Part shown: positions 31,958-35,160 of the stretch, in pieces
How positions within the stretch are numbered: the first letter of the stretch is position 1
How the letters are laid out: every line of letters starts with the position of its first letter
Assembly: GCA_951406725.2 (NCBI GenBank)
Contig: OX597825.1
Coordinates: 62,744,001-62,808,000, forward strand
Direction: 5' to 3'
Length of the DNA: 64,000 bases
Source of the DNA: Octopus vulgaris
Taxonomy: Eukaryota
Notes under the pieces: model-generated
Databases searched by the model: none
What the model was told of the DNA's origin: nothing
Seen by the model: only the letters and a program-made list of their open reading frames with translations
Made by a program: the position numbers and the translations under genes

Positions 31958-33684
31958 AGTTACTTTTGACATAAGTGAATGTAATTTAACACACAATTTT
32001 GCAGAGTACACAGACACATCTCTTTACATTTACCAAATTCTATTCACTAAGCATTGATCATCCCAAAGTTGCCATAGAAAACACTTGACATATCATATTG
32101 TAAAGTTGAACCTGAAGCCACATTGTTGCAAAGGAAACTCCCTTACCAGAAAACTGTGCCAGCACCTTTATGCAAATATGTGTTTATATAACACATCTAT
32201 TATAATACAATTTTATTGAATTATACAAATGCAATCTGCATATACATATGAATTTATCCACAAACTTTATCTATGTAATTTTGATTATTTTATTTACCAT
32301 AACATTTAGTAATTCAAAAATGTATTTGGCGGAATTTTTGTAAATTTTTATATGCTATTAGTGCTTTCTAGCTTCAATTGTATTTGCATACATAGCTGAA
32401 TGCATTCTATTTGTCTATATTCATTTGGTTATTTTGTTTTGTTTTTGTTGTTATGTGTTTTTTTTTTAATTTTTGTTGTTTGCAATCTAGTCTTGCTAAG
32501 TATGAATTTGTTTTGTTAATCACATGTATGTGAATTTCCAATCTACTTTCACCTATATTTCTGAATTCTAAGACTGATTAAATATTTTTGTATGAGTGGA
32601 AATATACAGTTGTCAGACATAATGAATATTCTATGACTGTAAATCAATTTGCTTGTGATTGTTTCAAAAGAAAGATTAATTCTTTAAAATCAGATATTAT
32701 GTAACAGTAGCAAATGAATAATGTTTAATTCTATTATTTTAGATTTTAAGATAGTTCACATTTTCCACTGCATTACTTGAAATTATCTAAAAGTTGACTT
32801 AGTCTGTAGCGATAAGCAGCTTCTGCATTTACTGCTTATTTTGCCTCCAACTACACACATCCAAAAGAAAAAAAAATTCTTCTAAATTCTTTCACATCGA
32901 CTCTCATCACCAGCTGCACACAAATGCACAAGTGCAGTCATCTGATTGTTGCAAAGCAAAGAGCTGCCTGGTTCCACCAGCATCTTTTGCATCACTCTCT
33001 TGCAGCCCAATCCAGACTTAACCCCTATCCATGGCAAATAATACCATCTGTCTCTCTCACTCTTTTACTTCAAGGGTAACCCAGTATATATTGTTTCTTT
33101 AAAACACTGCAGCCCCTCTAGCCCCGTAAATTACTGAACTATTGCTCTTTCATACCCAACATTCCAAACTTGGTAAAAAGTAATTTTTACTTATAATAAC
33201 ATCTGTTATCAACTAGCATCTCTTCCCAATCTCTAATAATCAGCTCACCTTTCATACAGGCCAAGCAGATATACGGGAGACCTACAGTCTGTTTCTCACC
33301 TGTAATATCTAATCTAGGCAAATTTTGTTATTAGTAATATTGATGTACAAAGTGCAGGCATTGCTTTGTGGTAAGAAGCTTGTTTCCCAACCACATTATT
33401 TAAGGCAAGTGTTTTCTACTATGGCCATGGGCCAACCAAAGCCTTGTCGGTGGATTTGGCAGACAGCAACTGAAAGATACCCATTGAGTGTGTATATATA
33501 TATATATATATATATATATATATATATATATATATATATATATATATATATATATATATATATATATATATATATATATATATATATATATATATATATA
33601 TATATATATATATATATATATATATATATATATATAATAAAAAGAAAAATAGAAAATGCTAAAATAATTTTATAAAGAACATTT

Positions 33685-33722
33685 CAGTACCGGTTTCAGC
33701 CATTTTGAGACCTTTTCAACTG
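33685..33722 (-). ncRNA. Degenerate minimal hammerhead ribozyme motif
   Basis: cag-UUGAAAA-ggtc(tcaaaat)ggct-GAAA-CCGG-UA-ctg. Confidence 0.5.
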
Positions 33723-33937
33723 TAACGATTAAATAATTAAATTTAGAAAAATTAAAAGAAATGTTTTTTTAAAGGAATATTTGTATAGTGTTCAAATATA
33801 AGTGGCATTTTCCTTGTTTCTGCCTTGCTCTGTCTCTCTCGTTCACACTTGTGGGTTTGAGTATTTTTTCATATATATATATATATATATGTATGTATGT
33901 ATGTATGTATGTATAACAAACAATGTATAGGTGTCAT

Positions 33938-34015
33938 TTCATTACAGCTGTTTCCAGCAAATTTTTTAATTGATTAATGAATAACATTTTTAAAAAACTG
34001 TATTCTTCAGATGAA
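33938..34015 (-). ncRNA. Minimal type I hammerhead ribozyme motif (stem II imperfect)
   Basis: ttcat-CUGAAGA-atacag...ctg-GAAA-CAGCUG-UA-atgaa: 5-bp stem I, palindromic stem III, GUA triplet. Confidence 0.65.
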
Positions 34016-34561
34016 TACACGAACTATAAAATTAAAGACATTAAAAGACATTTTAAGTTCACAGTATGTGCATATTTTGTGATTCCATGACCAATGCCAC
34101 TTGCAGAATGAATTTGTCAAATCAAAACGAACTAGAGTGGTTTTGTAGGAGAAGATATTCCCATGACATATATATCACTAAGGTATTTGCATATATATAT
34201 ATATGTGTATATATATATGTGTGTGTATATATATATATATATATATATGTATATATATATATATATATATATACACACACATATTTATAAAATATTATTA
34301 ATAGTTAGGTAATGTAATAATTCCAAGCTAACAGGGAAAAAAATTTCAATTTAGCACAACTAAATCAAAATTCACAATATATACATATATATATATATAT
34401 ATATATATATATATATATTATATATATAATTTAGAGACAAACCATTATTTAGTTATTCTATCAATAGTGAAAAGATATTATCTATAATAACCACATAGAA
34501 ATTAATTAAATATCTTATAATTATTATTCTAAAAGAATCTCATAACAAATCAAACATTAAC

Positions 34562-34657
34562 TTGACTACGCACATTTCATGACTAAATACATAAATCGAT
34601 AATATTAAAATTTAATATTAATACAATTTAAAAATATTTAGCCACACTTCAGGTCAA
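34562..34657 (-). ncRNA. Minimal type I hammerhead ribozyme motif with long stem II (A9 mutated, CpG-decayed stem III)
   Basis: ttgac-CUGAAGU-gtggctaaata...tatttagtcat-GAAA-tgtgcG-UA-gtcaa. Confidence 0.65.
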
Positions 34658-35160
34658 AAAAATGACATAAATTTAGATATTATGATAAAACAATAAATAT
34701 ATAAATATATGTATATTAACAGTAAATAATTCAAGAAAATTTAACAATATTAATGTAAAGCAAAACCATGACTTGTCTTATTGATGAAAACCAGTTGAAA
34801 AAAATTTATATATACACACACACATATGTGTATGTATGTGTATATATTTATGTGTATATCTTTGTATATGTGTTTGTCCTGCACCACCACTAGATACTGG
34901 TGTACTAGGATGAATTCATTCGACTAAAATAAATTGTTGAAAATGGTGCCACAGCATGGCCACAGTCTAATGACTGAAACAAGGAAGAGAAGATAAAACA
35001 AAAAAATGACATTAAAAATAATTCTGACTAAATCTGACCTGACAAGAGAAGTTCTTAATTAAGGAATCTCTGGTGGTGTTGTTTTGACTGAGATTAGCAG
35101 AAACGGTTAGGTTCATTTGGGACTGGCACTGAATATTTATCGCAACTAATATCCACTGTA

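Follow-up and report, generated by a model that had tools for sequence, protein, structure and literature searches.

Three 5′-truncated Penelope-like element ends with predicted hammerhead motifs stacked in the TA microsatellite of an old SINE in Octopus vulgaris

Between positions 33352 and 34998 of the window, by which we mean the whole 64-kb stretch of Octopus vulgaris DNA that was analysed, the internal TA microsatellite of a family A SINE is interrupted by three minus-strand insertions, each with a predicted hammerhead motif. The features are as follows, with the basis of element assignments in brackets.

33352–33486, plus strand: 5′ half of the SINE, old and from an abundant family, with a 27-nt internal deletion (HMM match, divergence)
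33493–33636, no strand: (TA)72 tract of 72 units, expanded from the SINE's internal microsatellite
33637–33861, minus strand: insertion 1, the youngest, a 5′-truncated 3′ end (pseudo-LTR) of a Neptune-type Penelope-like element without the optional 30-nt tail (copies, parent frames)
33680–33727, minus strand: type I minimal hammerhead 1, with a U3-A8 core variant at 33713–33719, a 4-bp stem II, a palindromic stem III (ACCGGU) and a predicted cut 3′ of the A at 33688
33862–33877, plus strand: 16 nt that repeat, inverted, the 3′ end of insertion 1; Penelope insertions typically have such inverted junctions, here in miniature (sequence comparison)
33915–34190, minus strand: insertion 2, the oldest, a Penelope-like 3′ end without the optional extension of about 280 nt, clade unplaced (copies, inverted pairs)
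33938–34015, minus strand: type I minimal hammerhead 2, with a CUGAAGA core at 34004–34010, a stem II partly decayed relative to the family majority and a predicted cut 3′ of the A at 33943
34191–34273, no strand: mixed TA/TG tract separating insertions 2 and 3
34284–34806, minus strand: insertion 3, a Hydra-clade Penelope-like 3′ end made up of a tail (34284–34378), its own expanded TA run (34377–34428) and a body (34429–34806) (19 collinear junctions, parent frames)
34562–34657, minus strand: type I minimal hammerhead 3, with its core at 34646–34652, a long stem II (11 bp in the earlier note), A9U and a CpG-decayed stem III
34808–34998, plus strand: rest of the SINE microsatellite and SINE 3′ half (from about 34866), with several deletions (HMM match, divergence)

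An earlier note on this DNA had placed two halves of one SINE about 1.37 kb apart with (TA)n tracts between them, and both statements held: the halves are collinear on one strand across a gap of about 1.38 kb, and tracts were located at 33493–33636, 34191–34273 and 34377–34428. The left half matches HMM positions 2–150 at 33357–33478 and the right half positions 113–188 at 34902–34990, with a start visible at about 34866. Against the family majority they carry 23/126 and 21/107 mismatches (18–20% divergence), both rank in the oldest tenth of family copies and both carry deletions. Because the halves match in divergence and age and are collinear on the plus strand, the simplest reading is a single old SINE insertion that was split by about 1.38 kb. 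The HMMs were built from at most 120 full-length halves each, out of 140 systematically sampled 10-kb stretches (1.4 Mb, loci L150–L289), in which the family is abundant (276 left-half and 276 right-half matches) and the inner microsatellite of most paired copies is shorter than 100 nt. ARAGORN found no tRNA gene in the 64-kb window. No right half follows 62 of 244 left halves in the sample, and many of these enter a different, shared body, which suggests that an older, related SINE shares this head. A further family A SINE at 29959–30207 of the window has an AT-rich insert of about 120 nt in its tract, and similar sequence follows a SINE left half at sampled locus L283.

Four mutually unrelated segments had been described between the SINE halves. 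Segments 3 (34284–34378) and 4 (34429–34806) instead belong to one element, as they are collinear in 19 other distinct junctions among 50 loci scanned, joined there by a TA-rich spacer of 2–134 nt; the locus thus holds three insertions with one hammerhead each. The segments are multi-copy, as had been supposed: a first-look search of the 2.8-Gb assembly (227 contigs) returned 1667, 595, 275 and 548 candidates for segments 1, 2, 3 and 4. Family loci were the top-scoring of 40 scored matches rather than a random draw. All three families have a fixed 3′ end, a ragged 5′ end, inverted ends and an optional tail. Their attribution to Penelope-like elements was borne out for two of the three, which run, in other copies and in broken pieces, into Penelope-like frames, but no frame was found for the family of insertion 2. 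The families are new ones of known Penelope clades, insertions 1 and 3 being assigned to theirs by motifs compared by eye.

The closest copies of insertion 1 are 96–99% identical to it. In this family the left end is fixed and abuts TA, the right end is ragged, and several copies are inverted pairs; longer inverted ends occur at L003, L016, L019, L020 and L024, and the tail is present at an end at 14 of 28 loci. Upstream of the pseudo-LTR, four loci (L111, L112, L113 and L123) hold a reverse transcriptase (RT), a CxxxxCxxC linker and a GIY-YIG domain, and translations of L112 and L123 contain DKG, a linker of the CX2-5CxxC type and CCHH in the endonuclease. On the parent frame, Pfam placed GIY-YIG above its cut-off (E = 1.6e-5) and RVT_1 below it (E = 2.7e-5). 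The Neptune clade as described (PMC8557442, PMC3846280) has in common with this family DKG, a CX4CxxC linker, CxxC inside GIY-YIG and a C-terminal endonuclease, together with the optional 30-nt tail, inverted ends and a TA target. The Nematis clade has the same linker, and the Neptune label is given on the motifs and the look of the Neptune rows. The U3-A8 core of the family has been reported from Schistosoma elements (PMC4209133), unlike the Neptune setting here.

Pieces of the parent frame of insertion 3, translated from three loci (L114, L115 and L118), have DKT instead of DKG, a CxCx5C linker, no Cys pair inside GIY-YIG and no CCHH. The first three of these features are given as marks of the Hydra clade (PMC8557442), nearly all families of which insert in (TA)n and bear hammerheads (Craig et al. 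2021, PMC8557442); the parent also shares with that clade CxxC and CxH near the C-terminus, a canonical-order hammerhead and the (TA)n target, and by eye its RT pieces resemble the printed Hydra alignment. On the clade descriptions in the same paper, a 'Nematis-like' label for insertion 3 was dropped for Hydra. An octopus family, Hydra-1_Obim, is listed in the supplement to that paper with a (TA)n target, and differs by eye from the insertion 3 family in its protein and its hammerhead. Further differences of the insertion 3 family are an Asn-rich region following the RT thumb and a tail of about 90 nt set off by an expandable TA run. In L114 and L115 the Asn-rich stretch, which lies between the RT thumb and the endonuclease, is long and recalls the N-rich inserts described in rotifer Penelope elements (PMC3846280). 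A search of the Hydra-type endonuclease piece against longer proteins gave one match among 958 candidates, too little to inform.

Copies of insertion 2 are 72–84% identical, and the family includes inverted pairs and an optional extension of about 280 nt. No reading frame was found in the roughly 1.2 kb of upstream sequence shared by five extended loci, so the Penelope origin of this family rests on its hammerhead, inverted ends and tail; the family is possibly non-autonomous. An endonuclease-like reading of the 280-nt extension failed on translation. Divergence from the respective majority is about 19% for the SINE, 13% for insertion 2, 1–4% for insertion 3 (biased low because its loci were chosen for likeness to the window copy) and 1.4% for insertion 1, and we infer that the probable order of arrival was SINE, insertion 2, insertion 3 and insertion 1.

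Three minus-strand hammerhead-like motifs with different stems and a common direction had been reported, and a type I descriptor matched all three, with the stem III sequences as given; the CpG decay proposed for the third stem III agrees with the family majority, which reads GAAAC-GCGC-GUA. Hammerhead cores are present in all three family majorities, but that of motif 1 is the U3-A8 variant UUGAAAA rather than the expected CUGANGA; the other two read CUGAAGA, and each majority has GAAAC, a palindromic stem III, a GUA site and a closing stem I. The window copies of hammerheads 1 and 2 keep the core pattern, whereas that of hammerhead 3 fails it (A9U and GAAAU), and this relic copy is likely inactive. 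Among other copies the pattern is intact in 27/28 of family 1, 13/35 of family 2 and 7/27 of family 3. Five descriptor matches were found in the 64-kb window (these three and an inverted pair at 39.7/40.0 kb) and 42 in the 1.4-Mb sample, compared with 8 after local shuffling and 2 after reversal of the sequence. By eye, 9 of 27 descriptor clusters were dropped as chance matches, two being common repeats with core-like words. Because the descriptor misses A6U and rewired cores, hammerhead densities are lower bounds. Rfam at gathering thresholds gave no match in the window; such minimal motifs escape it. Pairing reached 88% of cells in 15 aligned family 3 rows, versus 24–40% in slid controls. 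Covariation within this family is weak and not independent evidence, and firmer support comes from the different stems that 18 sequence families place around the same core.

Other hammerhead-like sequences were seen along the way. The inverted pair, at 39561–40185 of the window, consists of two nearly perfectly matching inverted copies of another Penelope-like end; both arms carry a type I hammerhead with a CUGAAGA core and a 10-nt palindromic stem III, and no further copies were found among the fetched loci. A common TA-flanked repeat (window 20231–20450, L255 and L286) has GAAA preceding CUGAAGA, and another family, abundant and also flanked by TA, has a hammerhead-like layout with U at core position 6 (L127, L227 and L249) and escaped the descriptor. 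Tandem same-strand hammerhead repeats, retrozyme-like in appearance, lie in L026 (at 16, 503 and 992), L090 (2123, 2658 and 3193) and L190 (261 and 850), with periods of about 490, 535 and 590 nt; the L190 unit has the core CCGAUGA.

Minimal type I hammerheads, including a U3-A8 core, have been described from Penelope pseudo-LTRs (Cervera and de la Pena 2014, PMC4209133). The motifs here share with them the strand order, a short palindromic stem III, a long stem II and the U3-A8 variant, as well as occurrence mostly as single truncated copies and in opposite-strand pairs; at 10.1–11.1 the described motifs have G-C, whereas the majorities of these predicted motifs have G-U (families 1 and 3) or A-G (family 2). 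Minimal hammerheads are thought to act as like dimers through stem III (PMC4209133). The stem III palindromes of the three families form self pairs of −5.2 to −13.3 kcal/mol and cross-family duplexes of −0.7 to −2.7 kcal/mol; they do not cross-pair, and the idea that insertions build ribozyme clusters in a functional sense is not supported. Given this lack of cross-pairing and the decay of two motifs, the three are unlikely to form a working ribozyme cluster, and on these predicted energies the stack would not act as a ribozyme unit. Every copy spans its own cut site, ending at least 28–140 nt beyond it, so the templates were uncut at that predicted ribozyme. For an anole element in vitro, uncut RNA was reported as the main template (PMC11167929).

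TA targeting, also proposed in the earlier note, is strong for families 1 and 3 but weak for the old family 2. After removal of 8 duplicate loci, (TA)5+ was present at the 3′ end at 28/28, 23/27 and 12/15 loci of families 1 and 3, compared with 3.6% of random positions; family 2 ends had (TA)5+ at 6/28 and TA3+ at 12/28. In the systematic sample, 28 of 42 insertions had (TA)5+ at most 300 nt downstream, versus 23% at random (p = 4e-9). Published accounts give (TA)n targets for both Hydra and Neptune, with hammerheads in pseudo-LTRs, tails and inverted ends (PMC8557442). Unrelated families were said to cluster, which they do about twofold around anchor loci (21 other-family insertions around 118 anchors versus 10 expected, P = 0.0016; 11 duplicate anchors removed), but the random sample on its own is not significant (2 pairs within 1 kb versus 1.0 expected, p = 0.26). 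Detectable insertions number about 30 per Mb, from which a rough Poisson estimate gives 40–150 triple stacks per genome.

According to the earlier note, the SINE spreads a preferred landing pad on which Penelope families build same-strand ribozyme clusters. Several observations agree: 27/176 paired SINE interiors hold non-microsatellite pieces, 132 of 894 TA blocks touch a SINE interior, so that the SINE supplies about a seventh of them, and a SINE left half is directly followed by another Hydra-family copy (L070). Against it, Penelope ends show no excess in SINE tracts. SINE interiors accounted for 2 of 69 TA junctions, compared with 211 of 1788 TA-block sides (11.8%; 1.4-Mb sample; Fisher p = 0.019), and for 1 of 42 hammerhead-bearing insertions in the same sample. 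Relative to blocks of at least 20 units (33/482) the deficit is not significant (p = 0.14), and the fair claim is that the SINE tract is 'not enriched' for Penelope ends, rather than 'avoided'. Other Penelope-like families that escape the descriptor contributed two insertions in SINE tracts, with 11–15 or 7–15 other copies, which is near the baseline. The pieces inside SINE interiors are of many kinds, the SINE itself included; their frequency rises with TA length (9/73, 6/59, 6/28 and 6/16), and several long ones are probably mis-paired halves. Since Penelope ends are not in excess and the inserts are so varied, the SINE tract is a TA target like any other. The direction of the motifs argues the same way. 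Unrelated hammerheads that lie near each other had the same direction in 6 cases and opposite directions in 10, with 5 ambiguous, which amounts to no orientation bias (p = 0.45), and none is expected because TA is its own reverse complement; given this lack of strand bias, the shared direction of the three motifs, which has a probability of 1/4, is likely chance. We therefore regard a SINE-borne landing pad for ribozyme clusters as very improbable. What stands of the related suggestion, that insertions regenerate SINE-borne TA targets, is that the Penelope elements' own internal TA seeds do so at least partly. Neither a SINE microsatellite as a Penelope landing pad nor this arrangement of octopus hammerheads was found in the literature searched, where subscription papers are thinly covered.

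Two further explanations were weighed. The stack might have moved in as one block, by gene conversion or repair between TA tracts, or might be an assembly join across long TA runs, which are known to break contigs. Contigs from public runs gave no empty allele, and none of those over 34430–35130 (four runs, mostly repeat copies) bridged a junction, as an assembly join would allow. The ages of neighbouring insertions, however, differ about tenfold, the SINE halves agree in strand and age, no other fetched family locus joins insertions 1, 2 and 3, and two other DNA runs also contain the locus-specific insertion 2 sequence, with 5 differences in one and 2 in the other; we hold a block transfer or misjoin to be very unlikely. 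The left flank is partly present in 20 runs, with no RNA run among those listed, which has no bearing on expression. A contig from one same-organism DNA run covers 34948–35128 with 16 differences, and two other runs match 34961–35130 exactly; the 16-difference contig would represent a divergent haplotype or population. The other explanation is a functional tandem ribozyme unit kept by selection, whether retrozyme-like or a self-processing intron or lncRNA element. In its favour, less than 1 kb of one strand holds all three motifs, the first of them is intact, and tandem hammerhead repeats exist elsewhere in the genome. Metazoan non-LTR retrozymes are likewise described with several type I hammerheads on one strand in a short span (bioRxiv 10.64898/2026.07.22.740005), but there they are tandem copies of one hammerhead-bearing unit, whereas the three units of this stack differ in age and are unrelated to one another. 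Moreover, minimal hammerheads need a like partner (PMC4209133), which the non-pairing palindromes do not provide; motif 3 lacks A9, stem II of motif 2 has drifted about as far as neutral sequence, and no second copy of the stack occurs among the fetched family loci. Selection for such a unit is thus exceedingly improbable.

Together, these data make it very probable that the TA microsatellite of an old SINE holds three separate target-primed, 5′-truncated Penelope-like ends, with their predicted hammerheads as passive cargo. On the mechanism drawn from the literature, a GIY-YIG endonuclease would nick (TA)n, and RT would prime on the nick and stop early, leaving a 5′-truncated copy; TA on both sides, together with element-borne TA seeds, could then expand and remain a target. 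Three insertions would have followed one another in this way, each carrying the predicted hammerhead of its pseudo-LTR. Because the elements are known to favour TA repeats and, in the samples examined, insertions in the SINE tract were no more frequent than in other TA repeats, the stack is likely an ordinary pile-up of dead copies, and likely without function.

The tails of families 1 and 3 raise a further idea about priming. The junction of tail-less family 1 copies with the target TA lies precisely at a fixed internal (AT)4 retained in tailed copies, and the two classes are about equally young (1.9 versus 2.2 mismatches, p = 0.17); at the corresponding position family 3 has its expandable TA spacer of 2–134 nt. 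One tentative possibility, which we think rather doubtful, is that Neptune and Hydra elements prime like telomerase, the (UA)n of the RNA annealing to nicked (TA)n. The run sits just downstream of the hammerhead, and reverse transcription would start there; starts further out would copy the run into the genome, where it could expand into a new target. The tail data also fit a model with two fixed start sites and no annealing, or one in which slippage between TA runs soon removes the tail. The start site of the anole Poseidon element, as reported (PMC11167929), is not homologous to its target, unlike what (UA)n annealing would entail. We found no statement of priming by (UA)n annealing in the literature searched, which is weak evidence.

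The stack is an example of known biology, in which TA-preferring Penelope-like elements pile up in microsatellites. In the genome around it, Penelope ends with hammerheads number at least about 30 per Mb and belong to at least 18 sequence families, which extrapolates roughly to 80,000; the word 'hammerhead' is absent from the main text of an octopus repeat annotation (PMC13282606). Family 1, at about 1% from its majority, is young enough for testing TA priming. If (UA)n annealing proved true, it would link the priming of endonuclease-bearing Penelope elements to the repeat annealing of telomerase and of telomere-bound Penelope relatives, and would mean that the elements seed their own targets.
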